Source of the DNA: a bacterium
GTDB lineage: Bacteria > Arandabacterota > Arandabacteria > Arandabacterales > JALGWA01
Direction of reading: 5' to 3'
NCBI GenBank assembly: GCA_050125095.1
Contig: JASFEA010000053.1
Coordinates: forward strand, 1-19,476
Length of the DNA: 19,476 bases
Notes under the pieces: generated by a model
Seen by the model: the letters and a program-made list of their open reading frames with translations, nothing else
Told to the model about the DNA's origin: nothing
Database searches by the model: none
In this document: in pieces, positions 755 to 19,476 of the stretch
Numbering within the stretch: the first letter of the stretch is position 1
Layout of the letters: every line of letters begins with the position of its first letter
Translations under genes and position numbers: made by a program

Positions 755-801
755 GGGCGCCTGGAGTCGCGCCCTCGGTTTCATTTCAAGGAGGTAACGC
801 C

Positions 802-1602
802 ATGCGAAAGGTAGTAATCGGCGTCTGCCTCGGTCTGGTGGTTCTGTCCCTGGCGCTGCTTCCGCGGCCGGCCGGGCTCTTCGCCGAGGGCGGTGAGGAC
901 CCGGAGGGTTGCGTGGAGACGCCGAAGGGCCCCATGGGGGCCGGGGGTGGAGCTGCAGGCGGAGGTGGACAGGCCGTGGCCGCAGCCCCCGTTTACGCCG
1001 TAACCGCGAAGATCGGGAAACCTGCCCCCGACTTCGAGGCCAACGGTTTCGTTAACGGGAAGTTCAAAAACATAACGCTGTCAGACTACAAGGGCCAGTG
1101 GGTGGTTCTGTGTTTCTACCCGGGCGACTTCACCTTTGTGTGACCTACGGAGTTGACGGCAGTTGCCGCCAAGTACGATGAACTGAAGTCGCTTGGAGTG
1201 GAAGTGCTTTCGGTAAGTGTTGACAGTCGTTTCGTTCACAAGATATGGCAGGAAACCGAGCTCTCGAAAATGATCGACGGCGGTGTGCCCTATCCCATGC
1301 TCTCGGACCAGGGCGGGCGCATCGGTACGGTCTACGGGGTCTATCAGGCCGACGCGGGCGTCAATACGCGGGGCCGCTTCATCATCGACCCCGACGGCGT
1401 CATCCAGGCCATGGAGGTGCTTACGCCTCCGGTCGGCAGGAATGTCACGGAGCTCATCAGGCAGGTCAAAGCATTCCAGCATGTGCGTGAGACCGGGGAG
1501 GCGACTCCTTCGGGCTGGCAGCCGGGCAAGCCTACGCTCAAGCCCGGGCCCGACCTCGTCGGTAATGTATGGAAGGTTTGGAAACCCGAGAACGCGTTCT
1601 AA
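802..1602 (+). CDS. prxU: Selenocysteine-containing peroxiredoxin (AhpC/Prx1, PrxU type) with predicted signal peptide; 266 aa, Sec at residue 114 (TGA 1141-1143)
   Basis: ORFs 751-1143 and 1153-1602 are in the same frame, separated by one TGA. Read-through gives [14 protein letters not shown], matching the AhpC active site FYPxDFTFVCPTE. Downstream [21 protein letters not shown] and [16 protein letters not shown] are AhpC motifs. Shine-Dalgarno AAGGAGGT (788-795) precedes ATG 802. Confidence 0.93.
1146..1175 (+). promoter_or_regulatory. Putative bacterial SECIS hairpin immediately 3' of the Sec UGA
   Basis: TTG-A-CGGC-[AGTT]-GCCG-C-CAA (1153-1172), extendable by TAC/GTA pairing; the apical-loop G (1162) lies 19 nt after the UGA, as expected for bacterial SECIS elements. 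Confidence 0.75.
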
Positions 1603-1799: not shown

Positions 1800-3992
1800 A
1801 TGTCACGGCTGCTGATCGTGTCCAACAGGCTCCCGGTGACCATGAGCCGCAAAGACGGCAATCTCACCCTGGAGTCGAGCGCGGGGGGGCTGGCCACCGG
1901 GCTGGGTTCCATATACCGCACGCGCGATTCCCTCTGGATCGGGTGGCCGGGGGTGTCCCGGGAGAGGATCGGGGATCGCCAGGAAGAAATAAAGGCGCGC
2001 CTCGCCGAGGACAGGTTCTATCCGGTGTGGCTCACCCAGCACGATGTCGAGAATCACTATTACGGTTTCTGCAATAAAACCATCTGGCCGCTCTTCCACT
2101 ACCTCTCCCTCTATACCATATACAGCAAGAACTACTGGGAGGCCTACAAGCGCGTGAATATGGAGTTCTGCGACGAGGTGGTCAGTGTCGCCAATGAGGA
2201 CGACGTGATCTGGATCCAGGACTATCATCTCATGCTGCTCCCCAGGATGATCCGTGAGAAGATGCCGGATAGCTCAATCGGTTTCTTTCTCCATATACCT
2301 TTCGTTTCATCAGAGGTCTTCAGGCTGCTTCCATGGAGGCGCGAGATCCTGGAGGGGCTGTTGGGGGCCGACCTCCTGGGCTTCCACACCTATGACTACG
2401 TGCACCACTTCGTAGAGAGCGTCCGCCGCGTGACCGGCTACGAGCACTCTTTCGGTGACATCAGCGTAGGCGGCCGCACGGTTAAGGTTGACGCCTTTCC
2501 CATGGGTATCGACTACCAGAAGTTCTCCGGCGCCGAGCGGGACCGCAAGGTGCAGAAGGAGATCAAGCGGATCCGCGATAAGGTCGGCGAGCGCAAGGTC
2601 GTGCTTTCCATAGACCGTCTCGATTACACCAAGGGCATTCCCGAGCGCCTTGAGATATTCGACATGTTTCTGGACAAGTACCCGGAGTACCGCGAGAAGG
2701 TGACCATGATACTGGTGGCGGTGCCCTCGAGGACGGGTGTCGAGCACTACAGGATGCTCAAGCGCAGGCTCGACGAACTCATCGGCAGGATAAACGGCAA
2801 ATACGGCACCTTGGACTGGATGCCGGTCTGGTATCTCTACAGGTCGCTGCCGTTCAACATGATGGTGGCGCTTTACAACGTTGCCGACATCTGCCTTGTC
2901 ACGCCTTTGAGAGACGGGATGAATCTCATAGCCAAGGAGTTCATCGCCAGCAAAGAGGACGGCACGGGCGTCCTTATTCTCAGCGAGATGGCGGGCGCGG
3001 CCAAAGAGCTCGGCGAGGCGCTTATCGTCAATCCAAACAACAAGGAAGAAATCGTAGAGGCAATGAGGACGGCATTCACCATTCCGCCTGAAGAGCAGGT
3101 GGTGCGCAACAAGGTGATGCAGGACCGCCTCTCGCGTTACAGCATCGCCGGCTGGGTGGACGACTTCATGGACTGCCTGGCCAAGGCCAAGGCAAGGCAG
3201 CACGAAACGGGCGTCATCAGGCTCACCGACAAAAAAAGAGAAAGGCTGAGAGCCGCCTACCACGATGCTTCGGACCGGCTTATACTCCTCGATTACGACG
3301 GGACGCTGGTTCCCTTCGTGGACAGGCCCGAGAAAGCGTCGCCGGATCCCGAGATACTCGATATCCTGAAGGCGTTTGCCTGCGTGGAGGGAAATGAGGT
3401 TGTGCTGGTAAGCGGCCGGGACAGGGACACGCTGGAGCAGTGGTTCGGCGATCTGGACATCGGGATGGTGGCCGAGCACGGTGTCTGGACGCGTGACCGG
3501 GGCGGCGCATGGGAGATGATAGAGGCTCTCAAGGACGATTGGAAGAGCGAGATGAAGCCGCTTCTCGAGCTCTATGTCGACAGGACGCCCGGGTCGTTCG
3601 TCGAGGAGAAGAGCTACTCCCTGAGCTGGCATTATCGCAAGGCCGACGCCAGGCTCGCCTCGGTAAGGGCCAAGGAGCTCAAGGAAGACCTCATCAAGCT
3701 CACGGAGAACCTGGGCGTGCGCGTGCTCGAGGGGAGCAAGGTCATAGAGCTCAAGGACGCCGGCGTGAACAAGGGCCGGGCCGCGGCCCGCTGGCTCGGG
3801 CGAAAGGGCTGGGACTTCGTGCTGGCGATAGGCGACGACTGGACCGATGAGGACATGTTCGATGTTCTGCCGGATACCGCGTACTCGATAAAGGTGGGAT
3901 TGAGAGCCTCGAAGGCGCGTTTCAATATCGATTCGCAGGAAGATGTCAGGGTACTCTTAAAGGAACTGAGGGCTACTACATGCGAAGCTTAG
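1800..3992 (+). CDS. otsA: Bifunctional trehalose-6-phosphate synthase/phosphatase (OtsA-OtsB fusion, TPSP)
   Basis: GT20 motifs VSNRLP, SAGGLA, WIGWPG, IWIQDYHL, FFLHIPF, DRLDYTKG, RDGMNL; C-terminal HAD domain LDYDGTL, VSGR, IGDDWTDEDMF. Confidence 0.95.
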   Translation: MSRLLIVSNRLPVTMSRKDGNLTLESSAGGLATGLGSIYRTRDSLWIGWPGVSRERIGDRQEEIKARLAEDRFYPVWLTQHDVENHYYGFCNKTIWPLFHYLSLYTIYSKNYWEAYKRVNMEFCDEVVSVANEDDVIWIQDYHLMLLPRMIREKMPDSSIGFFLHIPFVSSEVFRLLPWRREILEGLLGADLLGFHTYDYVHHFVESVRRVTGYEHSFGDISVGGRTVKVDAFPMGIDYQKFSGAERDRKVQKEIKRIRDKVGERKVVLSIDRLDYTKGIPERLEIFDMFLDKYPEYREKVTMILVAVPSRTGVEHYRMLKRRLDELIGRINGKYGTLDWMPVWYLYRSLPFNMMVALYNVADICLVTPLRDGMNLIAKEFIASKEDGTGVLILSEMAGAAKELGEALIVNPNNKEEIVEAMRTAFTIPPEEQVVRNKVMQDRLSRYSIAGWVDDFMDCLAKAKARQHETGVIRLTDKKRERLRAAYHDASDRLILLDYDGTLVPFVDRPEKASPDPEILDILKAFACVEGNEVVLVSGRDRDTLEQWFGDLDIGMVAEHGVWTRDRGGAWEMIEALKDDWKSEMKPLLELYVDRTPGSFVEEKSYSLSWHYRKADARLASVRAKELKEDLIKLTENLGVRVLEGSKVIELKDAGVNKGRAAARWLGRKGWDFVLAIGDDWTDEDMFDVLPDTAYSIKVGLRASKARFNIDSQEDVRVLLKELRATTCEA

Positions 3993-5188
3993 AAGACTAC
4001 AGCGACATCGTGGGTGAAGAGGTCATATCGGCAATTTACAAGAAGGCGCGGTCGCTCTACGGGGTGAGAGTGCTTATGATCAATTCGACCTACTATGGCG
4101 GCGGCGTCGCTGAAATCCTGAATACATTTGTTCCGCTCATGAATGACATCGGGCTCAGGATGGGCTGGCGCATCCTGAGAGGCACCCCCGACTTCTTCGA
4201 CATCACCAAGCGTTTCCACAACGCGCTTCAGGGCGAGGAAATAAATCTCACCGAGATCAAGAAGGACCTCTATGTGGAAGCCAACCAGGCTTTCTCGACC
4301 TATACCCATATAGACCATGACTGTGTCATAATACACGACCCCCAGCCGCTTCCGCTCATCCGCTATTATGCCAAGAGGCAGCCGTGGATATGGAGATGCC
4401 ATGTGGACCTCTCGAACCCGAGCCCCGAGTTCTGGTCGTTTTTGAAACGCTTCATACTGCGCTACGACATGGTGGTCATATCGAGCTCCAAGTACAGGCG
4501 CGAAGACCTTCCCGTGTTCCAGAGGGTCATTCACCCTTCGATAGATCCTCTGTCTCCCAAGAACATGGACCTCAAGAAGGGCGTTATCGCCAAGTCCCTG
4601 AAGAGGTTCAAGATCCCGACCGACAAACCCATCATCGCCCAGGTCGGGAGGTTCGACAAGTGGAAGGGATGCGAAGCCGCGCTCGATGTTTACCAGCGCG
4701 TGAGGCAGAAGGTGGACTGCCGGCTGGTCCTCTGCGGCTCCATGGCGACCGACGACCCCGAAGGGCAGATCGTCTATGAAAGCGTGTTGAGAAAGGCCAA
4801 CGATCTGGTAAAGAACGGCGAAGTCATACTGATAACGAGCGAGAACAATATCCTCGTGAATGCGCTTCAGCGGGTCGCTTCGGTGATACTCCAGATGTCT
4901 TCCCGCGAGGGCTTCGGGCTCACCGTCACGGAGGGCCTCTGGAAGGGGAAACCCGTCATAGCCTCGAACGTGGGCGGTATCGGCCACCAGGTCGCCGACG
5001 GGGAGACCGGGTTCCTCCTGGAGCCGGACGATATCGACGGGTTCGTCGAAAATACGCTTCGCATTCTCAAGGACCCCAAAGCCGGCAAGGAGGTAGGTCG
5101 CGCCGGCAAGGAGTGCGTGCGCCAGAACTTCCTCATCACGAGGCTGCTCTCGGACTATCTCGATCTGCTGAACGACGTGATGGTATGA
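3980..5188 (+). CDS. treT: Trehalose glycosyltransferring synthase (GT4 family)
   Basis: TreT-type motifs NSTYYGGGVAEIL, IHDPQP, WRCHVD, PSIDPLSPKN, RFDKWKG, ATDDPEG, EGFGLTVTEGLWKGKPV; overlaps the TPSP stop by 13 nt. Confidence 0.88.
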   Translation: MRSLEDYSDIVGEEVISAIYKKARSLYGVRVLMINSTYYGGGVAEILNTFVPLMNDIGLRMGWRILRGTPDFFDITKRFHNALQGEEINLTEIKKDLYVEANQAFSTYTHIDHDCVIIHDPQPLPLIRYYAKRQPWIWRCHVDLSNPSPEFWSFLKRFILRYDMVVISSSKYRREDLPVFQRVIHPSIDPLSPKNMDLKKGVIAKSLKRFKIPTDKPIIAQVGRFDKWKGCEAALDVYQRVRQKVDCRLVLCGSMATDDPEGQIVYESVLRKANDLVKNGEVILITSENNILVNALQRVASVILQMSSREGFGLTVTEGLWKGKPVIASNVGGIGHQVADGETGFLLEPDDIDGFVENTLRILKDPKAGKEVGRAGKECVRQNFLITRLLSDYLDLLNDVMV

Positions 5189-8588: not shown

Positions 8589-10328
8589 ATGACGGCCGGA
8601 CAGGACTCGAAAGCTGCGAGAGACGGCGAACTCGTCGAGCTCATCGACGGGGTCATGGTGCTGGACGATGGCGGCCGGATCGTTGCCTTCAGCGAGGGAG
8701 CTGAGCGCATAACCGGCTATGCGTCCAGCGAGGTGATCGGCGAGACATGCCGGGAGGTCTTCCGCTCCAACAGATGTGATTCGGCATGCCCGGCCGACAA
8801 GACCATCAAGTCGGGCATTGCGCTCTCCAACTGCACTTGCCATATCATCACCCGCGATGACGACGAGATTGAGATATCGCTGAATACCTCTCCCCTCAAG
8901 GGCACCGGAGGTGAGACGGTCGGGGTCGTGGTCGTGTTCCGCAACCTCAACGAAATGGTCGAGATGATGGAGCGGCTGACCGAACTCGACCACGAGATGA
9001 TGAGGGAGAAGGAGCGGAGCGAAGCCATACTGAACAGCATCGCGGACGGCGTGATTACGGTGTCCAGGGACCTCGAAATAGTCTCCTTCAACCGTTCCGC
9101 CGAGAAGGTCACGGGTTTCAGCGCCGCCGAGGTCATAGGCAAGCCATGCAGGACCATATTCAGGAGCCGGGCCTGTGAGGAGGGCTGCCCCGTGCTCGAG
9201 ACCATCAGGACGGGCGAGCCGGTCGCAGGCGTCGAGGTCGAGATCCTCGCCCGGGACGGTTCGCGCATACCCGTGAGCATGAACACTGCCCTTCTTAAGA
9301 ATGAAAGGGGCGAGGTGAGCGGAGCCGTCGAGACTTTCCGCGACCTGTCCAACGTGAGGAAACTCACCGAAGAGCTCAGGGGAAGGTACTCCTTCAGGAG
9401 CATTATCGGCCGGAGTCCGGAGATTCAGCAGGTATTCGAGCTCATCCGCTCCGCGGCGCCGACCAATGTGACGGTGCTCATACAGGGCGAAACGGGGACG
9501 GGCAAGGAGCTCGTCGCCCGCGCAATACACTATGAGAGCCCGCGCAGCGACAGGCGTTTCGTCGCGGTGAACTGCGCCGCGCTCCCGGCGACCCTCCTGG
9601 AGAGCGAGCTGTTCGGGCATGTGAAAGGCTCCTTCACCGGAGCCACTTTCGACCGCAAGGGCAGGTTCGAGAGAGCCGACGGAGGAACCATTTTTCTCGA
9701 CGAGATAGCCGAGATAGGCTACGAGACGCAGGCAAAACTACTGAGGGTGCTCGAGAACAGGGAGTTCGAAAGGGTGGGTGACAGCGCGACGCGGAAGGTG
9801 GATGTGCGCCTGATATGCGCCACCAACAAGAACCTCAGGGAGCTCGTCGGTGCGGGCAAGTTCCGCGAAGACCTCTACTACCGCATCAATGTGGTCACCA
9901 TAGACCTGCCTCCGCTGAGGGCGCGCTCCGGGGACGTGCCTCTCCTCATCGACCACTTCGTCGACAAGCTGAGCAAGGAAACCGGCAAAGCCGTTACGGG
10001 GATATCGCCGGATGCCATGGACCTTCTGATCGACTACCCCTGGCCGGGCAATGTCCGCGAGATGGAGAACGCCATAGGGCACGCTTTCGTGCACTGCAGG
10101 GGCGAAGCCCTCTTGCCCGAGCACCTGCCGCCCGACATCACGCGGGGGATTCCGCACATAACCCATGCCGCCCTGGGTCCCGTGAGCTCGGTGGACCAGA
10201 TGGAGAAGCTCCTGATCGAGGAGGCTCTCAAACAGACCGGGGGCAACAGAACCCGCGCGGCTCGCAAGCTGGGCATGAGCAGGAGCTCGCTGTGGCGGAA
10301 AATCAAGAAGCATGGTCTGGAAGTGTGA
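8589..10328 (+). CDS. Sigma54-dependent enhancer-binding protein, PAS-PAS-AAA+-Fis HTH; OrpR-like
   Basis: Walker [24 protein letters not shown], Walker B FLDEI, REDLYYR, WPGNVRE, C-terminal HTH ([21 protein letters not shown]); both PAS domains carry CX8CX3C; directly upstream of an orp-like operon. Confidence 0.93.
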
Positions 10329-10331
10329 TCA

Positions 10332-10367
10332 TGTTCTAATATGATACATACGTTTTAATATGCTACA
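10332..10367. promoter_or_regulatory. Tandem putative upstream activator sequences (bEBP sites)
   Basis: TGTTCTAATATGATACA (10332-10348) and CGTTTTAATATGCTACA (10351-10367): 14/17 identical, (T/C)GT-N11-ACA, about 130-150 nt upstream of the predicted sigma54 start. Confidence 0.65.
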
Positions 10368-10464
10368 CCACCTTGTGTTCCCCACCCGGTCGTCATATGT
10401 CATTGATGTCCCTAACCTCCTCTAAATAAAGTAGATACGGCGGGACTGCATACCACCGCTCTTA

Positions 10465-10480
10465 TGGCACAGTACCTGCA
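10465..10480 (+). promoter_or_regulatory. Sigma54 (-24/-12) promoter of the orp-like operon
   Basis: TGGCAC-AGTAC-CTGCA with GG 10466-10467 and GC 10478-10479 spaced by exactly 10 nt; adjacent to a sigma54 activator gene. Confidence 0.85.
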
Positions 10481-10509
10481 AACAGAAGCAATGACAGGAG
10501 GTGATGGGC

Positions 10510-10779
10510 GTGCCACATGGTAGAGGAAGACGTTACTTCGGAAGGGGATTCTGGAAGTGGCGTGCGGCGGGCGGTCCGGGTTCCGGCACGTTCGGTGGCG
10601 GCTCGATAGGATGCGGCAATCCTTATCCTCATTGCAGGAGATTTCCATATTCGCCGCGATGGTGGTGGGCAATGCCCCAGTACGCCGGCAACTTGAGCCG
10701 GACCATGGTTCGTGGCTGGGGTATGACCCCGGGTATCTGGCAACGACCTAGTCTGCCCACCACCTTTCGCGGCTTCTGA
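10510..10779 (+). CDS. Small Gly/Arg/Trp/Pro-rich protein (89 aa), possibly DUF5320-related; first gene of the sigma54 operon
   Basis: SD AGGAGGTG (10496-10503) is well spaced for GTG 10510 (the ORF-track start 10501 overlaps the SD); sequence MPHGRGRRYFGRGFW...GCGNPYPHCRRFPYSPRWWWAMP. Confidence 0.65.
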   Translation: MPHGRGRRYFGRGFWKWRAAGGPGSGTFGGGSIGCGNPYPHCRRFPYSPRWWWAMPQYAGNLSRTMVRGWGMTPGIWQRPSLPTTFRGF

Positions 10780-10868
10780 CTCGCGGGGCCCGAGCCCGCG
10801 CGAGGCGGACCCGAAGGGGATTGAGGAGATATGAATAACCTGAAAGTGATTATGGGAGGTACAGCCAA

Positions 10869-11672
10869 ATGAAAGTAGCAGTTTCTTCGACCGGGCCGGA
10901 TATCGATGCGCAGATGGACCCGAGATTCGGCAGATGTCAGTATTTCGTGCTGGTCGACTCGGATAGCATGGCTTCGGAAGCGTTTGAGAATCCCAATACC
11001 ATGGCGAGCGGCGGGGCTGGAATTCAGTCGGCCCAGCTGGTGGCCGAGCACGGAGCCCAGGTCGTACTGACGGGCAATTGCGGGCCGAACGCATACCAGA
11101 CGCTCGAAGCGGCCGGCATAGCAGTGATCGTCGGCGTTGCGGGAACAGTGCGCGAGGCCGTTGAGAAATACCTGAGCGGCGAGTTGAGCCCTGCCGCTGG
11201 TCCGAGCGTCGGCGATCATTACGGTAGTGGATCCGGCCCCTGGCAAGGTTCGGGCCCCGCGCCCGGAGGCATGGGTCCGGGTATGGGCGGAGGTGGCGGC
11301 GGGTTCGGAGGCGGCGGAGGCGGTGGGGGCCGCGGGGGCGGTGCGGGCCGCGGGGGCGGTGCGGGCCGCGGAGGCGGTGCGGGCCGCGGCGGCGGAGGCG
11401 GTCGCGGCGGCGGAGGCGGTCGCGGCGGCGGAGGCGGTCGCGGCGGCGGTGGTGGCCGCGGCAGACGTGGCGGTTTCGGCATGGGCGGTGGCGGTTTCGG
11501 CATGGGCAGGGGAATGGGCGCCTTTGGCCCCATGATGCCCGGCCCGATGGCGCCGGGCGCGGGCCCGGGCGACGAGCGGGATATGTTAAGACATCAGGCC
11601 GAGGTCCTCAAGCAGCAGCTCGATGACATCAGGCGCCGGATTTCGGAGATTGAGAAGGAAGAGGGTCGGTGA
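10869..11672 (+). CDS. NifB/NifX-family (orange protein-like) metal-cluster-binding domain fused to a Gly/Arg repeat region and DUF5320-like coiled coil
   Basis: MKVAVSS, DPRFGRCQYF, GGAGIQSAQLV, VLTGNCGPNAY; low-complexity middle; C-terminal ERDMLRHQAEVLKQQLDDIRRRISEIEK; SD GGAGG at 10855-10859. Confidence 0.88.
   Translation: MKVAVSSTGPDIDAQMDPRFGRCQYFVLVDSDSMASEAFENPNTMASGGAGIQSAQLVAEHGAQVVLTGNCGPNAYQTLEAAGIAVIVGVAGTVREAVEKYLSGELSPAAGPSVGDHYGSGSGPWQGSGPAPGGMGPGMGGGGGGFGGGGGGGGRGGGAGRGGGAGRGGGAGRGGGGGRGGGGGRGGGGGRGGGGGRGRRGGFGMGGGGFGMGRGMGAFGPMMPGPMAPGAGPGDERDMLRHQAEVLKQQLDDIRRRISEIEKEEGR
11328..11453 (+). repeat. Seven in-frame 18-bp tandem repeats encoding (GRGGGA)3(GRGGGG)4
   Basis: Units start at 11328, 11346, 11364, 11382, 11400, 11418, 11436; followed by a duplicated GGFGMG. 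Confidence 0.9.
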
Positions 11673-12520
11673 GACCTCTCAAAATAGGAATAGCCAGTGG
11701 AAAGGGCGGCACGGGCAAGACCACCGTTGCAGTTTCTCTTGCCCTAACTCTGGAAGGCTTGCCCATACGTGTCCAGTTCCTTGACTGTGACGTGGAGGAA
11801 CCCGATGCCGCCCTTTTCCTCAAACCTGATATAGACAGCACCGAGGAAGTCACGATCCCGGTGCCGCTTATCGACGAGGAAAGGTGCACCGGCTGCGGCG
11901 AATGCGCAAAGGTCTGCCAGTTCAACGCGCTGGCGATCGTCTCGGGGAAGGCACTCGGTTTTAAGAACCTGTGTCATGGCTGCGGCGGGTGCGCCTTCAT
12001 TTGTCCGGCAGAGGCCATACGGGAGACGCCCAACAGAATCGGGTCGATCGAAAAAGGCGCGGTCGGGAGCATGGCTTTCATGAGCGGCCGGCTCGATGTG
12101 GGCGAGCCCAAGGCCACGCCGCTGGTGCGTAGTCTCAAATCAGCAGCCGGGAACGGGGTGCCCACCATACTCGATTCGCCGCCGGGCACGGGCTGCCCCG
12201 TGGTCGAGACCGTACGGGACTGCGACTACTGCATACTCGTGACCGAACCGACGCCGTTCGGCCTTTACGACCTAGAACTCATGGTGAAGGTGCTTGAGGT
12301 GCTCGGCATTCCGTCGGGAATCGTCATAAACCGCGACAACGGCGAGAGCGACATTATCGACCGGTTCGCCGCCGAGAAGGGCATACCGGTGCTGATGCGC
12401 ATCCCCTTCAGCCGCGAGATCGCCGAGTCGCTGTCCCGCGGGATACCGCTTGTGGTAGCCGACACCGACTGGGTCGGTGAGTTCAAGCGTCTCGCAGAGC
12501 AAGTGGCAGGTGACTTATGA
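11669..12520 (+). CDS. MinD/ParA-superfamily P-loop ATPase with inserted 2x[4Fe-4S] ferredoxin domain (Orp3/Orp4-like)
   Basis: Deviant Walker A SGKGGTGKT, DCDVEEPD, CTGCGECAKVC, CHGCGGCAFICP, DSPPGTGCP; GTGA overlap with the upstream stop. Confidence 0.9.
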   Translation: MRPLKIGIASGKGGTGKTTVAVSLALTLEGLPIRVQFLDCDVEEPDAALFLKPDIDSTEEVTIPVPLIDEERCTGCGECAKVCQFNALAIVSGKALGFKNLCHGCGGCAFICPAEAIRETPNRIGSIEKGAVGSMAFMSGRLDVGEPKATPLVRSLKSAAGNGVPTILDSPPGTGCPVVETVRDCDYCILVTEPTPFGLYDLELMVKVLEVLGIPSGIVINRDNGESDIIDRFAAEKGIPVLMRIPFSREIAESLSRGIPLVVADTDWVGEFKRLAEQVAGDL

Positions 12521-13437
12521 AGCGCCCGGTCGAAGTGACGATCGTAAGCGGAAAGGGCGGAACTGGCAAGACAGTGCTTGTGTCCTCGCTCGCCAGGCTC
12601 TTCGAGAGCAAGGTGATGGCCGACTGCGACGTGGACGCGCCTGATTTGCACCTGCTCCTTAAGCCCGAGATAAAACGTAACGAGCCCTTCGTCGGCGGAA
12701 GACTCGCCCGAATAGACCCGGGGCGTTGCACGGGCTGCGGCGAGTGCAAGAGGCGCTGCCGCTTCGACGCAATAATCGAGGAGCCCGCGAATGGCGGCTC
12801 GCGCTACAGGGTCGACGAAATCGCATGCGAGGGATGCGCGGTGTGCTACTACGCGTGTCCCGCGGACGCCGTCGAGATGAATGACAACCAGAACGGCAGG
12901 TGGTTCATATCGGATACCGCCTACGGGCCCTTTGTCCACGCCTGTCTGGATCCCGCGGAGGAGAACTCTGGAAAGCTCGTGAGCATCGTAAGAAAAGAGG
13001 CCCGGCTGATGGCGAACAGCGCCGGCCTCAGGTATATTATCGTGGACGGGCCGCCCGGCATAGGGTGCCCGGTGATCTCTTCGATTGCGGGGGCGCAGCT
13101 TGTTGTCATAGTAACCGAGCCCACCGTATCGGGATTGCATGATTGTGAGAGAGTGGTGTCGCTCGCGCGTCATTTCGGGATCCCGGTGGCGGCCGTCATA
13201 AACAAATACGACATCAATACCGCCGCGGCCGCTGAGGCTGAGGCTTTCTTCGCGGAGAAGAACGTCACGTTGCTCGGGAAGATCCCGTTCGGACTTGAGG
13301 TCGGCCGGAGCCTGGCCGCGGGCAAGCTCGTCGTCGACGAGGCGGATAGCCCGGTTGCCCGCAGCCTGCGCTCGGTAGGCGAGGCCCTGAAGAACACGCT
13401 GGACGGCATCGTCAGCGAGGCCGCGGCATCGAAATAG
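12517..13437 (+). CDS. Second MinD-superfamily ATPase with ferredoxin insert (Orp3/Orp4-like paralog)
   Basis: SGKGGTGKT, DCDVDAPDLHL, CTGCGECKRRC, CEGCAVCYYACP, ENSGKLV, DGPPGIGCP; ATGA overlap. Confidence 0.9.
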   Translation: MKRPVEVTIVSGKGGTGKTVLVSSLARLFESKVMADCDVDAPDLHLLLKPEIKRNEPFVGGRLARIDPGRCTGCGECKRRCRFDAIIEEPANGGSRYRVDEIACEGCAVCYYACPADAVEMNDNQNGRWFISDTAYGPFVHACLDPAEENSGKLVSIVRKEARLMANSAGLRYIIVDGPPGIGCPVISSIAGAQLVVIVTEPTVSGLHDCERVVSLARHFGIPVAAVINKYDINTAAAAEAEAFFAEKNVTLLGKIPFGLEVGRSLAAGKLVVDEADSPVARSLRSVGEALKNTLDGIVSEAAASK

Positions 13438-13473
13438 AGGACTCGGGGTTGGCAAATACAGGAGACACGGACC

Positions 13474-14709
13474 ATGAACGACACTGCTGAGAGAATGAAG
13501 AAGATAGAGGAAAGGCGCAAGCGCGTCACCAGCCGAATGAGCGAGGTCAAGCACAAGTTCGTCATACTGAGCGGCAAGGGCGGGGTGGGCAAGAGCACCG
13601 TCGCAGCCTATCTTGCGTCCGCGCTGGCTGCCAGGGGCAGCCAGGTCGGGCTGCTCGACACCGACATACACGGCCCGAGCATTCCAAAAATGGTGGGGGT
13701 TGAGGGCGAGAGGGTCACTCTTGCCGGCGATACCATAGTGCCCATTGAAGTCAGCAAGAACCTCAGAGTGATGTCCATCGCCTTTCTGCTTCGCTCGAAG
13801 GGCGATGCCGTGATCTGGCGGGGCCCGCTCAAGATGACCATGATAGAGGAGTTTCTCGGCAACGTGGAATGGGGTCCCCTCGACTACCTCATAATCGACT
13901 CGCCGCCGGGGACGGGTGATGAGCCCCTGTCCGTTGTCCAGTTCCTGCCGGACCTGGATGGGGCCATCATCGTAGCCACTCCCCAGGAGATAGCGCTTAA
14001 CGACGTCGAGAAATCAATTACCTTCTGCCGCCAGGTTAAAATACCGGTGGCGGGTGTCATAGAAAACATGTCGGGCTATGTGTGTCCGCATTGCAATGAG
14101 CGCGTGGATATCTTCAAGTCGGGTGGAGCGGAGCAACTGGCGTCCCGGATGGGCGTTCCGTTTCTGGGCAGGCTCCCCCTCGTGCCCGGCATTGTGCAGG
14201 CATGCGATGACGGCCGCTGCTCTTACGAGGAGTCGGCGAACGCCGGGCTGAGAGATGCCCTGGATGAGATCACGAATAAGCTGACGGCCCGGGCCGGCTC
14301 CGGCGATAAGGCCGATGAGGCGGCCGATGCCGCCGCGGCCCCAGCCCCGCCCGCAGCGGGCGGGCCGGCCGCCACGCGGAAAATAGCCATACCCCTGGAC
14401 GGCGATACCGTGAGCGCGCATTTCGGACACAGTCCCGAGTTCGCCGTTTTCGACGTCGCCGGGCAGTCGATTGCCGGAAGCGGTAAACTCGAGGCCCCCC
14501 CACACTCGCCGGGTGCCATACCGGCGTGGCTCAAGGAGAGCGGCGTCGACGTCGTGATTGCCGGCGGAATAGGCAACCGGGCAGTGGGCATGCTCGAGTC
14601 CTCGGGGATAGAAGTGGTGACGGGAGCGCCGCCCGGGCGCCCCGAAGAACTGGTGAAGGCGTATCTTGCCGGCACACTGGAGGCCGGCGAGAACGTATGT
14701 GACCATTGA
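13474..14709 (+). CDS. mrp: Mrp/NBP35 (ApbC) Fe-S carrier ATPase fused to a C-terminal NifB/NifX domain (MrpORP-like)
   Basis: SGKGGVGKST, DIHGPSIP, VIWRGP, DSPPGTGDE, ENMSGYVCPHC; Ala/Pro linker; then KIAIP...HFGH...VIAGGIG...ENVCDH. Confidence 0.92.
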   Translation: MNDTAERMKKIEERRKRVTSRMSEVKHKFVILSGKGGVGKSTVAAYLASALAARGSQVGLLDTDIHGPSIPKMVGVEGERVTLAGDTIVPIEVSKNLRVMSIAFLLRSKGDAVIWRGPLKMTMIEEFLGNVEWGPLDYLIIDSPPGTGDEPLSVVQFLPDLDGAIIVATPQEIALNDVEKSITFCRQVKIPVAGVIENMSGYVCPHCNERVDIFKSGGAEQLASRMGVPFLGRLPLVPGIVQACDDGRCSYEESANAGLRDALDEITNKLTARAGSGDKADEAADAAAAPAPPAAGGPAATRKIAIPLDGDTVSAHFGHSPEFAVFDVAGQSIAGSGKLEAPPHSPGAIPAWLKESGVDVVIAGGIGNRAVGMLESSGIEVVTGAPPGRPEELVKAYLAGTLEAGENVCDH

Positions 14710-14764
14710 GTGCCGGCCCTCCGGGCCGCGGCGACCGGCTGTGCGCCGGCGGGACGGGCGGGGG

Positions 14765-14788
14765 GCGGGCCTGGTCCGCTTTCCTCTT
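14765..14788 (+). terminator. Possible weak intrinsic terminator after mrp
   Basis: GCGGGC-CTG-GTCCGC hairpin followed by TTTCCTCTT. Confidence 0.3.
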
Positions 14789-14798
14789 AAGAAAACCC

Positions 14799-14866
14799 TT
14801 GCAGACTGCGGCCTGAGTGTCGATACTTGGAAGATAATTCAGCCGGACATGGGTGGGTATACCCAT
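14799..14866 (+). promoter_or_regulatory. Candidate feoAB promoter and palindromic operator
   Basis: TTGCAG (14799-14804), 17 nt, GATACT (14822-14827); perfect 12-bp palindrome TGGGTATACCCA at 14854-14865. Confidence 0.4.
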
Positions 14867-14908
14867 CAGGCAGCATCTTTGGCGGGTCTGACAGGAATCG
14901 AGTGCTAT

Positions 14909-15142
14909 ATGCCGGTTACGCTGGACCAGATGAAGAAGGGCACCAGGGGCAAGATCGTGAGCGTGGTGGGCGGAAGGGGCGTTGCCCTGAAGCTGTCGGC
15001 CCAGGGGATAAGCCCGGGTATGATGGTGGAGAAGATAAGCGCGCTTCGCGGCGGGCCGGTCGTTCTCCGGGTCGGGAGAAGCCGGGTGGCCATCGGGATC
15101 GGACTTGCCAGGAAAGTGCTCGTGGAGGTAGATGAGGCTTGA
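14909..15142 (+). CDS. feoA: Ferrous iron transport protein A
   Basis: 77-aa SH3-like FeoA pattern (TLDQMKKG...KLSAQGISPG...GPVVLRVGRSRVAIGIGLARKVLVE); ATG 14909 chosen over the ORF-track start 14666. Confidence 0.9.
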   Translation: MPVTLDQMKKGTRGKIVSVVGGRGVALKLSAQGISPGMMVEKISALRGGPVVLRVGRSRVAIGIGLARKVLVEVDEA

Positions 15143-16848
15143 AGAGGCTCCTGCTCGTCGGCAATCCCAATGTCGGCAAGAGCGTCATCTTCTCGAATCT
15201 CACCGGCGTCAACGTTGCATGCTCCAATTATCCCGGTACCACCGTCGAATACTGCGCCGGCCGGCGCAGGATCGGCAGCGAACAGGTTGAGATAATCGAC
15301 GTACCGGGCGCCTACAGTCTTGAGCCCACCAGCAAGGCCGAAGAAGTCGCCACCCGCATGATAGACGGCGGCGACATCATAGTAGATGTGGTCGACGCAA
15401 CCAATCTCGAGCGGAACCTCTACCTCACGCTGCAGCTCCTGGAGACCGGAAAGCCGGTCATAGTTGCATTGAACATATGGGACGAGACCAAACACAGGGG
15501 CATTGAGATCAACGTGGAGGCTCTCTCGGAGATGCTGGGAGTCCCGGTGGTTCCCACGGCGGGTCGAAGCGGTTACGGCCTCGACCGGCTTCTCACGAGC
15601 CTCGGCCAGGCAAGGGCACCCAGGCGCGAGAAGACCAGCGCGGACGAGCGCTGGAAACTCATCGGCAAGATCATCGCGGCCACGCAGCGGCTGACCCACC
15701 GCCACCATACGTTCCTGGAGAGGCTGGAAGACGCCAGCATACATCCGGTGGGCGGGTTCTTCGTCGCGGCCGCGGTCATCATCGTCTCGTTTTCACTTGT
15801 GCGCGCGATCGGTGAGTCGCTCATCACCTTCGTGATGAATCCCTTCTTTAATAAGATATATCTCCCCCTTGTCGAAGTCGTGAGCGAGCAGACAGCTTCG
15901 AACGAGTTCCTGCACAGCGTTCTCATAGGCAAGCTCGTGGACGGCCAGGTGGACTTCATCCAGTCTTTCGGCCTCCTCACGACGGCGCTGTACGTGCCAG
16001 TAGGCATGGTCCTGCCCTATGTGGTGGCCTTCTATTTCATGCTGGGATTCCTGGAAGACATCGGCTACCTGCCCAGGCTGGCCATACTTCTCGACGGCTT
16101 GATGCACAAGATCGGGCTTCACGGCTACACCGTGATACCGACCCTCCTGGGCCTCGGCTGCAATGTGCCGGCGCTTCTGGCAACGAGAATACTGGAGAGC
16201 CGGCGCGAGAGGTTCATAGTCGCGACGCTGATATCTATCGCCGTTCCATGCGTGTCCCTGCAGGCCATGATCGTGGGCCTGCTTGGCCACTACGGCATGC
16301 GCTATGTGGCGTTTGTTTACGGGGTGCTGTTCCTGGTCTGGCTCACGCTCGGCCTTATCATGAAGGTCTTCACGCGGGGCATACTGCCGGCCCTTCTTAT
16401 AGAGATACCGCCGTACCGGCCGCCCCACATGCGCTCGCTTGCGGTGAAGTTCAGAATGAGGACCTTCGGATTCCTCAAGGAGGCGCTCCCCGTGGTGCTT
16501 ATCGGAGTCGCCGTCATCAATCTCCTCTATGCAATTGGAATACTGGATTCTCTGGCGAACCTCACCGCGCCCGTCGTGACCAGGGTGCTTGGGCTTCCCA
16601 AGGAGGCGGTGCTCGCCATAGTCGTGGGCTTTTTGAGAAAGGACATAGGCGTCGGCATGCTGGCGCCCCTGGGGCTCAGCGTCAAGCAGCTCATAATCGG
16701 CTGCGCCACGCTGGCCATGTTTTTCCCGTGCATAGCCACGTTCGTCATCATGTTCAAGGAACTTGGCCCCGTTGACATGGTAAAAGCTATTTGTGTGATG
16801 GTGGCGACTTCTCTTGTTGTAGGGGGCATACTTAATGTTGTACTCTAG
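15139..16848 (+). CDS. feoB: Ferrous iron transporter B (short form, 569 aa)
   Basis: G1 GNPNVGKS, G2 NYPGTT, G3 DVPG, DATNLERNLYL, G4 NIWD; membrane motifs LEDIGYLPRLA, GLGCNVPA, IEIPPYRPP, FFPCIAT; TTGA overlap with feoA. Confidence 0.93.
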   Translation: MKRLLLVGNPNVGKSVIFSNLTGVNVACSNYPGTTVEYCAGRRRIGSEQVEIIDVPGAYSLEPTSKAEEVATRMIDGGDIIVDVVDATNLERNLYLTLQLLETGKPVIVALNIWDETKHRGIEINVEALSEMLGVPVVPTAGRSGYGLDRLLTSLGQARAPRREKTSADERWKLIGKIIAATQRLTHRHHTFLERLEDASIHPVGGFFVAAAVIIVSFSLVRAIGESLITFVMNPFFNKIYLPLVEVVSEQTASNEFLHSVLIGKLVDGQVDFIQSFGLLTTALYVPVGMVLPYVVAFYFMLGFLEDIGYLPRLAILLDGLMHKIGLHGYTVIPTLLGLGCNVPALLATRILESRRERFIVATLISIAVPCVSLQAMIVGLLGHYGMRYVAFVYGVLFLVWLTLGLIMKVFTRGILPALLIEIPPYRPPHMRSLAVKFRMRTFGFLKEALPVVLIGVAVINLLYAIGILDSLANLTAPVVTRVLGLPKEAVLAIVVGFLRKDIGVGMLAPLGLSVKQLIIGCATLAMFFPCIATFVIMFKELGPVDMVKAICVMVATSLVVGGILNVVL

Positions 16849-16869
16849 CATCTGAGCTGGAGACTGTAT

Positions 16870-18552
16870 ATGGATGTACGAGTCAAAACTGCCGCGATTT
16901 CGATTTTTATCAACATCATTCTCGTGGCATTCAAGTTCTACCTGTCCAGGGTATCCGGCAGCGCTTCCCTCAATGCCGACGCATGGCACTCCATATCGGA
17001 CCTGTGCGTTTCGGCTTTCGTCCTCGCCGGCCTGCGCGTGTCGGGCGGGGGCGGCAGGAAGGCGCTGGTGAACTGGCGCGGGTTCGAGGACGTCGTGGCC
17101 CTCGGAGTCGGCGGTTTCATTCTCTACACGGGTATTCGCATCTTCAGCGAGTCGGTCAGCCAGGTTCCCCAGCAGCTCACCAATGTAGGCTTCGCCATAA
17201 CCGGGGCGCTCGTCTGCGTGCTCATATCGTATCTCCTTGCCACCATGAAGATCAGCATCGGCAAGCTGCACAACTCGCCGAGTCTGGTGGCCGACGGCTA
17301 TCATTCGAGAATGGACATGTACTCGACCGTGGCGGTCACGCTGGGTCTCTTCGGCGCCATGATCGGCGTTGGTCTGGACAGGGTGGCGGCGGCATTCGTG
17401 GCTATCATCATCGTTCTCACCGGCCTCGAGATCATCGTGAGCTCGATAAGGGCCATCGCAGGCGGCGAGAACATAAGCGACTACTTCATCACGCTTCTAT
17501 TCGAGAGGGGCAGGCGGCACGGCCCCTGGGGCCGCGCGGCGAACGCCATCCTCAGGATCCGCGACTGGCTGAAGAAGGACCGGCGCTATGCCTATGTGAT
17601 CCCGGCCGTAGTTGTTGGAATATGGGCCCTCTCCGGCTTCTACACCCTCGAGCTCGGCGAGGAAGGCCTGGTCTTCAGGTTCGGCAAGCTGGCCAGTTAC
17701 GAGCTCGATCCGGGGGTTCACTATCACAACCCGGCTCCGTTTGAAAAAGTGATAAAGGTCCGTGTCGCGGCGATTCATCGAATCGAGCTCGGCTTCAGGA
17801 GCGCCGGCCGGGGGACGGCCAGCGCCCGGGCTTACCAGTGGGAGAGCCGCCACCTGGCCGGAAGCTATGAGAAGAGACTCAGCGAGTCCCTCATATTCAC
17901 GGGGGACGAGAACATCATAGACGTCAACACGGTGATCCAGTATCGAGTCCGCGAGCCCGTGCTTTTCATTCTCAGCGTGGAAGATCCGGAAACCGTGGTG
18001 CGTGCCGGCGCCGAGGCCGCGATCAGGGAAGTCATCAGCAGCACGGCCATCGACGACCTCCTGACGACCCAGAGGACCCAGGTCGAGGCGAAGGTGCACG
18101 CATTGCTGCAGGAGATACTGGACGCTACGGCCCCGGGCGTCGTGGTCACCGCGGTCAAGTTGCAGGACGCGCACCCGCCCTACGAGGTTGTAAGCGCCTT
18201 CAGGGAAGTGGCGAGCGCGAGGGAGGATAAGAACAGGATGATCAACCAGGCCCTTGCGTATCGCGACAGCCTCATACCGGAAGTGAGAGGCCTTGCCGCC
18301 AAGCTGGTTGAAGAGGCCCACGCCGAGACTACCGAGGCCATACATCACGCGCGCGGCGAGGCCAGCAGGTTCGTCGACGTGCTCGCAGAATACAAGAAGG
18401 CAGAGGAGGTTACCGAGCTCCGTCTCTACCTGGAGACAATGGAGCGCGTTCTGCCCGGGCTGGAGAAGTTCATTGTCGAGCCGGAGGCGGGCGAAGAGCC
18501 GCTCGATCTCCGCTTCTTCGACGAGTCCGCCGTGGGCATAAAGTGGGACTGA
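16870..18552 (+). CDS. hflK: Fusion protein: cation diffusion facilitator (CDF) transmembrane domain + HflK (SPFH) domain
   Basis: Residues ~1-195: CDF signatures SGSASLNADAWHSISD and SPSLVADGYHSRMD with six hydrophobic segments; from ~245: HflK motifs WALSGFYT, RFGK, PGVHYHNPAP, FTGDENIIDV, LQDAHPP, AFREVASAREDK, ARGEASRF, RLYLETMERVL. One uninterrupted ORF. Confidence 0.9.
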   Translation: MDVRVKTAAISIFINIILVAFKFYLSRVSGSASLNADAWHSISDLCVSAFVLAGLRVSGGGGRKALVNWRGFEDVVALGVGGFILYTGIRIFSESVSQVPQQLTNVGFAITGALVCVLISYLLATMKISIGKLHNSPSLVADGYHSRMDMYSTVAVTLGLFGAMIGVGLDRVAAAFVAIIIVLTGLEIIVSSIRAIAGGENISDYFITLLFERGRRHGPWGRAANAILRIRDWLKKDRRYAYVIPAVVVGIWALSGFYTLELGEEGLVFRFGKLASYELDPGVHYHNPAPFEKVIKVRVAAIHRIELGFRSAGRGTASARAYQWESRHLAGSYEKRLSESLIFTGDENIIDVNTVIQYRVREPVLFILSVEDPETVVRAGAEAAIREVISSTAIDDLLTTQRTQVEAKVHALLQEILDATAPGVVVTAVKLQDAHPPYEVVSAFREVASAREDKNRMINQALAYRDSLIPEVRGLAAKLVEEAHAETTEAIHHARGEASRFVDVLAEYKKAEEVTELRLYLETMERVLPGLEKFIVEPEAGEEPLDLRFFDESAVGIKWD

Positions 18553-18567
18553 CAGGAGGCAGGTAAG

Positions 18568-19443
18568 ATGAGAAAACGGGCAATCATTTACATCGTGGGG
18601 ATTGTAGTCGTTCTCCTCGTCTTGAGCTCGGTTCTCTTTGAAGTCAAGGAGACCGAGCATGTCGTCGTTACGCAATTCGGGAAACCGGTGCGGGTCATTG
18701 ACGAGGCCGGTCTGTTCGCCAAGATGCCCGACCCGTTCCAGTCGGTGCGCAGGTTCGACAAGAGGCTGCTGCTCTATGACGTCAAGGCTGCGGAGTTCGT
18801 CACTTCCGACAAGAAGAACCTCATTCTCGACATGTACCTGACGTGGAAGATCGTCGAGCCGCTGAGGTTCCTGGCGTCGGTGCGCGAACGGAGCATCGCC
18901 GAGTTCCTGCTGGCGGACGTCGCCGGGGCCGAGGTGGGCGCGGCCATAGGCAAGGTGCCGCTGTCGGCACTGGTCTCCATAGACCCTGCCGCGGTCATGG
19001 TCGACTCCATAATGGGCCAGGTGACCCGGAACTGCCGCTCGCGGGCGCTTGCCGACTACGGCATCGACGTGCAGTACGTGAAAGTCAAGCGCATCCGGCT
19101 GCCCGAGCAGAACCTCGAGAGCGTGTTCCAGAGGATGCGCACCGACCGGCAGAGAATAGCCAAGAAGTACCGCTCGGAGGGCGAGGAGGAAGCCATAAAG
19201 ATCCGCGCCGACGCGGACAAGGAGAAGCGCGACATACTCGCGCGCGCATACCGGGACGCCGAGATGATACGCGGCGAGGGCGAGGCCGAGGCGGCGGGGA
19301 TCTACGCCTCGGCATTCAGCCGGGACCCGGGCTTCTACAAGCTCACGCGCACCCTCCAGGCGTACGAGAAGTTCCTGAACAGCAAGACGACGGTCGTTCT
19401 CTCCACCGACTCTGAGCTATTGAGGCTCTTCAAGGAGAGATAA
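18568..19443 (+). CDS. hflC: HflC-like SPFH protein (FtsH protease modulator family)
   Basis: N-terminal TM helix, VVTQFGKPV, FDKRLL, TSDKKNL, YGIDV, VFQRMRTDR, YRSEGEEEA, RGEGEAEAA, DPGFYKLTRTLQAY; SD AGGAGG upstream. Confidence 0.92.
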   Translation: MRKRAIIYIVGIVVVLLVLSSVLFEVKETEHVVVTQFGKPVRVIDEAGLFAKMPDPFQSVRRFDKRLLLYDVKAAEFVTSDKKNLILDMYLTWKIVEPLRFLASVRERSIAEFLLADVAGAEVGAAIGKVPLSALVSIDPAAVMVDSIMGQVTRNCRSRALADYGIDVQYVKVKRIRLPEQNLESVFQRMRTDRQRIAKKYRSEGEEEAIKIRADADKEKRDILARAYRDAEMIRGEGEAEAAGIYASAFSRDPGFYKLTRTLQAYEKFLNSKTTVVLSTDSELLRLFKER

Positions 19444-19464
19444 GAAGAACTTGAAGGTGACAGG

Positions 19465-19476
19465 ATGAACCAGGGT
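19465..19476 (+). CDS. Possible start of the next operon gene (MNQG...), truncated by the window
   Basis: AAGGTGA SD-like sequence (19454-19460) then ATG at 19465; only four codons visible. Confidence 0.3.

Follow-up and report, generated by a model that had tools for sequence, protein, structure and literature searches.

In Escherichia coli, the SPFH proteins HflK and HflC are described as alternating in an assembly of 24 subunits that reaches into the periplasm around the protease FtsH and that tunes the degradation of membrane proteins by FtsH both up and down; HflK was modelled there over residues 79-355, and its N-terminal tail was not seen (PMC12048511). FtsH is reported to degrade the metal transporters MgtA, MgtB, FeoB and MgtE under adaptor control, with FeoB as a substrate in Salmonella (PMC10710835). 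In the cation diffusion facilitators (CDFs), the transport site, or A site, is described as a quartet of residues on helices 2 and 5, of the HD-HD type in ZnT-8 and of the DD-HD type in YiiP, and a CDF class without the cytosolic domain exists (PMC8341793). Here, we report a locus at which these two worlds meet in a single protein. The window, by which we mean the whole stretch of 19,476 nucleotides (nt) that was analysed (contig JASFEA010000053.1 of assembly GCA_050125095.1, from a member of the Arandabacterota), is the entire contig C53 of a 268-contig metagenome bin and carries a gene in which a CDF is fused to HflK, followed by hflC and by the beginning of hflK2, a second and unfused HflK paralogue. 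Relatives of this three-gene cassette occur in other lineages, in part with a different pump fused to HflK.

The two halves of the 560-residue product were recognised independently by profile searches. Residues 10-196 match Pfam Cation_efflux (PF01545) with 93.8 bits (cut-off 26.6) over profile positions 3-197 of 198, while Band_7 covers residues 262-461 with 78.9 bits. The protein also passes the NCBIfam CDF model TIGR01297 (92.0 bits, cut-off 82.35) and, over residues 257-539, the HflK equivalog TIGR01933 (229.1 bits, cut-off 159.4); it does not reach the equivalog for E. coli-type HflK, NF008181, with 174.9 bits against a cut-off of 660. ZT_dimer (PF16916), the cytosolic domain of CDFs, gave no match in the fusion at E ≤ 0.1 in the Pfam profile search. 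An AlphaFold2 monomer model, built on 18 relatives, has a mean predicted local distance difference test score (pLDDT) of 71.3 and a predicted template modelling score (pTM) of 0.48. It places six helices over residues 3-198, linker helices at 206-214 and 219-238, a seventh membrane helix at 240-254, an SPFH fold of strands and helices at 257-435, and long helices at 442-465 and 470-527. Hydropathy, model and fold matches agree on the layout of an HflK, with a single membrane anchor followed by the SPFH domain and a long coiled coil. In Foldseek searches, YiiP (8f6h, 5vrf, 8f6e) and ZnT7 matched the N-terminal half, and E. coli HflK matched the C-terminal half (7vhq_E at 1.1e-18, and also 9cz2, 9paw and 7wi3); by sequence, the closest solved chain is again an HflK (7vhp_E, 2.2e-44, phmmer). 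The gap between helix 6 and the HflK anchor is only about 40 residues long, and residues 197-240 contain 10 Lys or Arg against 5 Asp or Glu. This linker varies in length and sequence among relatives, and the model has low pLDDT over residues 201-217.

The fusion is neither a chimera nor a singleton. Two contigs of 18,624 and 14,608 bases, obtained in two other studies, span positions 16600-19476 unbroken, with 7 base differences and no indel, and both extend beyond the end of the window. Both Pfam domains are present in 115 of the best 120 relatives of near length. These relatives, found in many assemblies, show identities of 36-92% across roughly the full length. Among the best 150 sequences from a HMMER pass over 1.84 billion representatives (50% clustering), 83 are CDF-HflK fusions; the remainder of the same 150, classed by BLAST, comprises 19 P-ATPase-HflK fusions, one ArsP-HflK fusion and 47 HflKs alone, several of these being fragments. 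Within the host phylum, 13 of the 18 species genomes analysed have the fusion, which is split by contig ends in one of them. Outside the phylum it is found in genome G035, which belongs to another lineage (33% identity), in locus L012 and in records named Eisenbacteria. The contig scan with HflK-part patterns, from which our comparison set of canonical HflKs was drawn, yielded ordinary HflK at 79 of 80 loci, L012 being the sole fusion. Short RNA-library contigs identical to the window (X12 at 17091-17238 and 17623-17761, X20 at 18788-19020) hint at expression, with DNA carry-over as a possible source. Public annotation gives the pump-HflK proteins only as "HflK" or as "Cu+-exporting ATPase", so that half of each protein is hidden behind a single name.

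The putative transport site is complete. The four residues H40, D44, H145 and D149 do not vary among the 18 fusions that were aligned, and the quartet is retained in most of the 84 rows of divergent representatives (H40 in 79, D44 in 78, H145 in 79 and D149 in 79). That it persists at identities as low as about 26% speaks for selection on transport. An HD-HD site is of the Zn2+-transporter type, and Fe2+, Co2+ or Cd2+ could be carried as well; metal transport by the fused CDF, its direction and the metal involved are what we infer from sequence. The highest-scoring named CDF model was that of the magnetosome iron transporter MamB (NF033616, 75.4 bits over residues 6-195), whose site we take to be HD-HD. 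This score lies far under the cut-off of 350, which rules out MamB as the identity of the pump, and the window showed no further magnetosome gene.

The genes that follow the fusion make up a constant set. The start of hflC, with AGGAGG ahead of it, lies 15 nt past the end of the fusion. The window then stops within hflK2, its last 139 nt overlapping one end of C81, another contig of this genome, with 1 mismatch. The complete HflK2 passes TIGR01933 with 215.9 bits and shares about 37% identity with the HflK portion of the fusion, and the convergent gene behind it indicates that the operon ends there. The same genome has a canonical hflK-hflC pair on contig C103 (290 and 260 bits) and one ftsH on contig C27, from which it follows that the cassette is an additional system. 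The order pump-HflK, HflC, HflK2 recurs at every one of the 11 loci from relatives in which the fusion is complete, and also in G035; the window itself keeps HflC and HflK2 in this order across the join between C53 and C81, and the thirteenth fusion-bearing genome of the phylum, G012, has the cassette pieces on two contigs. Beyond the three cassette genes the neighbours differ and include LptD, gyrBA, an S9 peptidase and an RNA methyltransferase. The conserved unit is thus pump-HflK, HflC and HflK2, all on one strand.

The fusion and its nearest neighbours had already been described in a first-pass annotation of the window, made from the sequence alone; hflK2 and the occurrence of the cassette with other pumps (see below) lay outside its view. 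Its 560-residue open reading frame with a six-helix CDF, both site motifs and no CDF cytosolic domain agrees with the profiles, the model and the quartet. The basic linker and full HflK that it described are borne out by the residue counts and by the TIGR01933 score over the cut-off, and the spacing of 15 nt to hflC and of 21 nt to feoB upstream by the coordinates and the TIGR01932 and TIGR00437 matches; ftsH, which it noted as absent from the window, is indeed elsewhere, as the single copy on C27. The same annotation had raised the possibilities of a chimera, a singleton or a missing CDF profile match, all of which fail against the spanning contigs, the 115 of 120 relatives and the PF01545 and TIGR01297 matches, and a separate canonical hflKC locus, to which it had drawn attention, is present on C103.

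The CDF is not the only pump at this position. Proteins longer than 980 residues were searched with the HflK part, which gave 92 matches at E ≤ 1e-20 with lengths of 981-1069 residues. All 92 consist of E1-E2_ATPase, Hydrolase and Band_7 domains, and the named records are mostly from Bryobacterales/Acidobacteria. The P-ATPase-HflK protein P0248 is a heavy-metal P1B-ATPase according to TIGR01525 (532 bits), with 204 bits for its HflK part; among the subtype models, the Cd-type is over its cut-off with 436 bits and the Cu-type falls just under, with 395.8 against 397. CPC precedes DKTGT in 91 of the 92 proteins. None of the 92 has a CxxC in its first 100 residues, which indicates that the usual N-terminal metal-binding domain is missing from the fused P-ATPases, and this apparent loss parallels that of the cytosolic domain in CDF-HflK. 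With P0248 we found 80 metagenome loci with P-ATPase cassettes. HflC and HflK2 follow the fusion in all 49 loci that have at least 2100 nt downstream, and HflC follows in 17 of the 18 loci with 1000-2100 nt downstream, the exception being L172. A further protein, P0381 (726 residues), joins an ArsP_1 permease to Band_7 and is the one such case among the best 150 representatives. Three unrelated pump families, CDF, P1B-ATPase and ArsP, therefore occupy the same fusion point.

The P-ATPase cassettes have features of their own. In 12 of 63 HflK2 proteins, all from P-ATPase cassettes and some from near-duplicate loci, the cytoplasmic N-tail holds 9-21 His, an indication that in one lineage the unfused subunit may bind metal; the tail of the HflK2 that begins in the window has none. 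Acidobacterial P-ATPase cassettes have a downstream gene of about 160 codons in 29 of 54 loci (for example L116:10813-11301), whose product has one membrane helix and a weak DUF4878 match, and a DUF3604-like protein of about 1000 residues is encoded upstream of P-ATPase cassettes in 39 of 70 loci (for example L165:674-4078). Neither gene was found in the CDF-cassette loci examined.

The HflK parts of both fused kinds share a sequence mark. In the alignment, the CDF-fused and the P-ATPase-fused HflKs carry an insertion in the SPFH domain, at about residues 318-333 of the fusion, and HflK2 and the canonical HflKs are without it. The motif W[EN]xxH is present in 117 of 118 CDF-HflK and 89 of 92 P-ATPase-HflK proteins, as compared with none of 63 HflK2, 1 of 80 unfused HflKs from the genome scan, 1 of 28 unfused HflK-like proteins and none of 154 HflCs. 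Among the more distant CDF-HflK representatives, the rows without the motif include a short-form subgroup that has no insertion. Together with the His-rich HflK2 tails, we count the insertion as a link of the SPFH subunits to metal. Over insertion residues 316-330 the model has pLDDT below 50.

We examined the descent of the cassette parts with two trees. In the first (100 rows, quick search, LG+G4), support was given by the Shimodaira-Hasegawa-like approximate likelihood ratio test (SH-aLRT). The HflK2 proteins of both cassette kinds form one clade of 22 rows (SH-aLRT 98), the P-ATPase-fused HflKs another (100), and 21 of the 22 canonical HflKs a third (96); 13 of the 14 CDF-fused HflKs group at 84, with the long-branched G035 rows outside. 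In the second tree (81 rows, mixture model), the HflCs of the cassettes are separated from canonical HflC as one clade (SH-aLRT 97). Holding all 28 fused HflKs as one clade was not rejected by the approximately unbiased (AU) test (p-AU 0.763), and the constrained tree is 23.3 log-likelihood units better than the free-search tree. These groupings speak for a common descent of the cassette parts. The features of the locus are collected in Table 1.

Table 1. Features of the pump-HflK cassette, its upstream genes and related loci; positions are those of the window unless loci are named.
Feature	Position	Strand	Basis and remarks
CDF-HflK fusion gene	16870..18552	+	560 aa, stop-free frame; Pfam and NCBIfam matches; full-length relatives
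CDF transmembrane domain, six helices, residues 1-198	16870..17463	+	profiles, AlphaFold2 model, Foldseek
Transport-site codons	H40 16987-16989, D44 16999-17001, H145 17302-17304, D149 17314-17316	+	predicted four-residue A site, helices 2 and 5
Predicted cytoplasmic basic linker, residues 199-239, in place of the CDF cytosolic domain	17464..17586	+	no ZT_dimer; composition; model
Seventh membrane helix, HflK anchor, residues ~240-262	17587..17655	+	hydropathy window 240-263; model helix 240-254
SPFH domain of HflK, residues ~263-435	17656..18174	+	Band_7, Foldseek, phmmer
SPFH-domain insertion, residues ~311-335	17800..17874	+	alignment; motif AYQWESRHLAGSY at residues 321-333; typical of pump-fused HflKs
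HflK long coiled-coil helices, residues 442-527	18193..18450	+	AlphaFold2 model; TIGR01933 match to residue 539
Cassette hflC, 291 aa	18568..19443	+	TIGR01932 212.2 bits, cut-off 134.4
hflK2 (unfused second HflK paralogue, 348 aa), first 12 bases	19465..19476	+	rest on contig C81, same genome
feoB	15139..16848	+	TIGR00437 362.3 bits; ends 21 nt before the fusion
feoA	14666..15142	+	Pfam FeoA 50.2 bits, residues 84-154 of the listed frame
Four tightly spaced upstream genes	10869..14709	+	NifX-like/DUF5320, two MinD-like 4Fe-4S ATPases (MinD/CbiA-type), Mrp/NBP35 + NifX-like; Pfam
His-rich HflK2 tails	L146, L156, L163, L164, L169, L175, L178, L181, L182, L184, L189, L137		

On the strength of what was observed, namely the domain architecture, an intact transport site, a conserved cassette, alternative pumps and an insertion common to the fused HflKs, we propose with moderate confidence that the fusion is a K-type subunit of a dedicated HflK/HflC-like SPFH assembly. 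In this subunit, which is made from one operon with HflC and HflK2, a working CDF metal/proton antiporter that is without a cytosolic domain would stand in for the cytoplasmic N-tail. The termini of CDFs are cytoplasmic. After helix 6 the chain would accordingly be expected in the cytoplasm, the basic linker would run along the inner leaflet, and helix 7 would cross outward, leaving the SPFH domain and the coiled coil in the periplasm and the pump in the place of HflK's loose N-tail. The CDF would move metal from the cytoplasm to the periplasm and release it at the foot of the SPFH wall, the likely site of the insertion. Ring assembly, subunit ratio and a role for FtsH in the cassette are points that we infer. 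Since there are one C-type and two K-type genes, HflC is expected to alternate, as in the E. coli 24-mer, with a mix of pump-HflK and HflK2, and the pump-free HflK2 at some of the K positions would space the bulky pumps round the ring, a spacing that would matter more for P-type ATPases with their large cytoplasmic heads. The first-pass annotation had a transporter on each HflK subunit, which leaves out of account the conserved unfused HflK2 of the same operon; the K positions of the ring are probably divided between subunits with and without a pump. The scaffold would fix the pump in an SPFH microdomain and set its surroundings, activity or lifetime, possibly via FtsH, a coupling on which we can only conjecture.

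Several observations weigh against this proposal. The cytosolic domain of CDFs is a usual, though not obligatory, aid to dimerisation and activation, and the fused CDF is without it. The signals for the metal conflict, the HD-HD site being that of ZnT-8 and the best named model, below its cut-off, that of the iron transporter MamB; for the fused P-ATPases, P1B helix-7/8 motifs for Cu or Zn match only 0-4 of the 92 proteins. The structural model is of middling quality and poor in the linker and the SPFH insertion. The insertion motif is looser in the 84 rows of divergent CDF-HflKs, where WxxxH is kept in 54, W alone in 15 and neither in 15, and the ArsP-HflK fusion P0381 has no W[EN]xxH. The backbone among the K clades was not settled by free search (supports 0-83). 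The AU test of the fused HflKs as one clade is partly circular, because the alignment includes the insertion columns. Finally, homology of HflK and HflC is the sole tie of the cassette to FtsH.

The same parts could also be read as a turnover device, in which HflK holds the pump in an FtsH cage and FtsH destroys or spares the exporter according to metal status, so that the fusion would be a proteolytic switch and not an organiser of transport. Precedents for such control exist, in that HflK/C is described as surrounding FtsH and as raising and lowering the degradation of membrane substrates (PMC12048511), and that FtsH is reported to control MgtA, MgtB, FeoB and MgtE (PMC10710835). The genome has one ftsH, and both pump types are without their usual cytosolic metal-binding domains (no ZT_dimer; no early CxxC, 92/92), a loss that calls for some other control. 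However, a pump that belongs to the cage wall by covalent linkage could not be degraded without taking the cage apart. Furthermore, the canonical hflKC pair already serves FtsH in this genome, and no ftsH lies in the window or in or beside any cassette locus examined. We consider a role in turnover unlikely.

The genes directly upstream, feoA and feoB, are on the same strand as the fusion and separated from it by a gap of 21 nt, an arrangement that would fit a ring enclosing or adjoining FeoB, with the CDFs as a local Fe2+ safety valve or as a sensor for the importer. Of the 13 genomes in the phylum that carry the fusion, 8 show this linkage, and these are spread over three genera; genes for Fe-S related ATPases lie further upstream, one relative has a complete CDF fused to a NifX-like domain in the same operon, and FeoB is reported as an FtsH substrate in Salmonella (PMC10710835). 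The linkage is nevertheless lineage-specific, since feoB does not adjoin the cassette in the 5 remaining genomes, in the two fusion loci from beyond the phylum (L106 and L012) or in any of the 80 P-ATPase cassettes. In addition, the conserved unit comprises the three SPFH genes only, and the HD-HD quartet is described as zinc-type (PMC8341793). A caged FeoB, which the first-pass annotation had put forward, therefore does not hold as a general idea (8/13 in the phylum, 0/2 outside, 0/80 among P-ATPase cassettes), and we regard a system centred on Feo as clearly improbable. In the host lineage, the iron-flavoured operon (feoAB, Fe-S ATPases) still suggests that an Fe2+ overflow valve beside Fe2+ uptake is plausible.

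A third reading takes the CDF for a sensor, which would bind metal without transporting it and tune an HflK/C-FtsH assembly. The lost cytosolic CDF domain and the choice of a known protease modulator as fusion partner are in keeping with it, but the full transport quartet is conserved, and the parallel fusions keep P-type ATPases with CPC and DKTGT in 91 of 92 and the ATPase Pfam domains in 92 of 92 cases; retention of so costly an engine for sensing alone is hard to expect, and we hold this reading to be very improbable. That the gene is an assembly chimera, a frameshift artefact or a decaying gene, as its origin in a metagenome bin (91% complete, 3.45% contamination) might allow, is refuted by the independent contigs that cross the junction without an indel, by more than 100 full-length relatives from many assemblies and by the family-invariant residues kept in both halves.

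Returning to the proposed SPFH assembly with a fused exporter, a more far-reaching version, to which we assign a low probability, would have a periplasmic SPFH chamber whose wall subunits act as exporters themselves, so that metal would be delivered to the interior or the rim of a membrane compartment bounded by protein, with HflK2, His-rich in its tail in some lineages, as spacer and metal collector. If this were true, the chamber would be a metal-handling nano-compartment for sequestration, metal loading of exported proteins or FtsH-gated efflux. Among SPFH cages it would then be the first whose client is both built in and identifiable, and the first to carry a defined small-molecule flux. 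How the rings formed by SPFH proteins (HflK/C, stomatin, prohibitin, flotillin) affect the membrane proteins that they enclose is an open question, and their clients are mostly loosely defined. In the cassette, a client whose chemistry is known has become covalently attached to one of the ring subunits, which offers a natural test of the effect of a cage on its clients. The system is also tractable, as transport is measurable, the residues of the site have been located, the ring is open to imaging and the effect of the scaffold can be separated at the linker. More broadly, it suggests that several little-studied phyla have a layer of metal homeostasis that has gone unrecognised. Our literature search, which was without most subscription journals, found no published description of a CDF-HflK or P-ATPase-HflK fusion; the families themselves are known, and what we did not find in print is that they are joined covalently, that a third subunit accompanies them, that the fused HflKs share an insertion and that the pump is exchangeable.

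With regard to the remainder of the window, the frame listed for feoA probably begins too early, as the FeoA domain occupies only its residues 84-154 and its first 44 nt still lie within the Mrp gene. The four genes before feoA overlap or sit 36 nt apart, and this set, feoAB and the cassette, all on the same strand, possibly form one iron/Fe-S operon. In the relative G007, which belongs to the same taxonomic order, the two domains of a complete CDF, Cation_efflux and ZT_dimer, are fused to a C-terminal NifX-like (Nitro_FeMo-Co) domain (L111:5081-6496), and this gene is placed between the Mrp gene and feoA, within the operon of the CDF-HflK cassette. A promoter and terminator scan of positions 10000-19476 gave no intergenic match inside the operon, and an Rfam scan of the window gave no family at its gathering score. 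A gene for a PAS/sigma-54 activator at 8589-10328 is followed by a gap of 540 nt before the NifX-like gene that opens the operon, and the sole site with 1 mismatch to the sigma-54 promoter pattern TGGCAC-N5-TTGC, at 10465-10479, sits in that gap. Only its position is suggestive; as a promoter signal the pattern was rejected, because its 9 matches in the window at up to 2 mismatches, against 16.3 expected, make the count meaningless. Elsewhere, a 2-Cys peroxiredoxin frame at 751-1602 (+) is interrupted by a single in-frame TGA (1141-1143) at the peroxidatic cysteine, which reads FTFV-U-PTE with selenocysteine. The genome has selA (561 bits, over the cut-off), and the frame probably encodes a selenocysteine peroxiredoxin rather than being a split gene; a fold resembling a selenocysteine insertion sequence downstream of the TGA was not significant (z-score 0.03). 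Positions 1800-5188 encode a fused OtsA-OtsB trehalose-6-phosphate synthase/phosphatase in one frame of 730 residues, followed by a TreT-type trehalose synthase.

When compared with known systems, the cassette is closest to the HflK/HflC-FtsH system of E. coli (7vhp, 7vhq, 7wi3, 9cz1, 9cz2, 9paw), with which it shares the membrane helix, the predicted periplasmic SPFH domain and coiled coil, and the adjacent hflC. It differs in that a six-helix metal transporter replaces the disordered cytoplasmic N-tail, the fusion point corresponding to the N-terminal tail that is described as unmodelled in E. coli HflK (PMC12048511). The cassette also adds the HflK2 subunit and the Trp/His insertion in the SPFH domain, has neither hflX nor ftsH nearby, and stands apart from the canonical hflKC pair.

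On the transporter side, the fusion resembles YiiP/FieF and ZnT-8/ZnT-7 (3h90, 5vrf, 8f6e, 8j80) in its six-helix Cation_efflux fold and in the position of its site on helices 2 and 5, which is HD-HD as described for ZnT-8 (PMC8341793). Unlike YiiP, to which its sequence match is weak (E 1.2e-4), it is without the cytosolic C-terminal domain. CDFs that are also without this domain are known (PMC8341793), but a CDF fused to an SPFH protein is not known to be among them. The P1B-ATPase-HflK fusions share the fusion point, the downstream hflC and hflK2 and, commonly, W[EN]xxH, whereas their pump is ATP-driven and unrelated to CDFs; the ArsP-HflK fusion, whose ArsP_1 permease is likewise unrelated, is without the insertion motif.

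Metal transporters whose abundance is set by FtsH, namely MgtA/MgtR, MgtB/MgtU, FeoB/FeoC and MgtE/YqgP, are described in PMC10710835 and offer a precedent for a link between a pump and the FtsH-HflK/C machinery. In those cases small adaptor proteins make the link, and in the cassette it would be made by fusion to HflK. By their entry titles, the Foldseek matches also include QmcA-YbbJ (8z5g) and stomatin-aquaporin 1 (9zd2), in which an SPFH ring is likewise associated with a specific membrane protein; unlike in these, the client in the cassette is covalently joined to the ring subunit.

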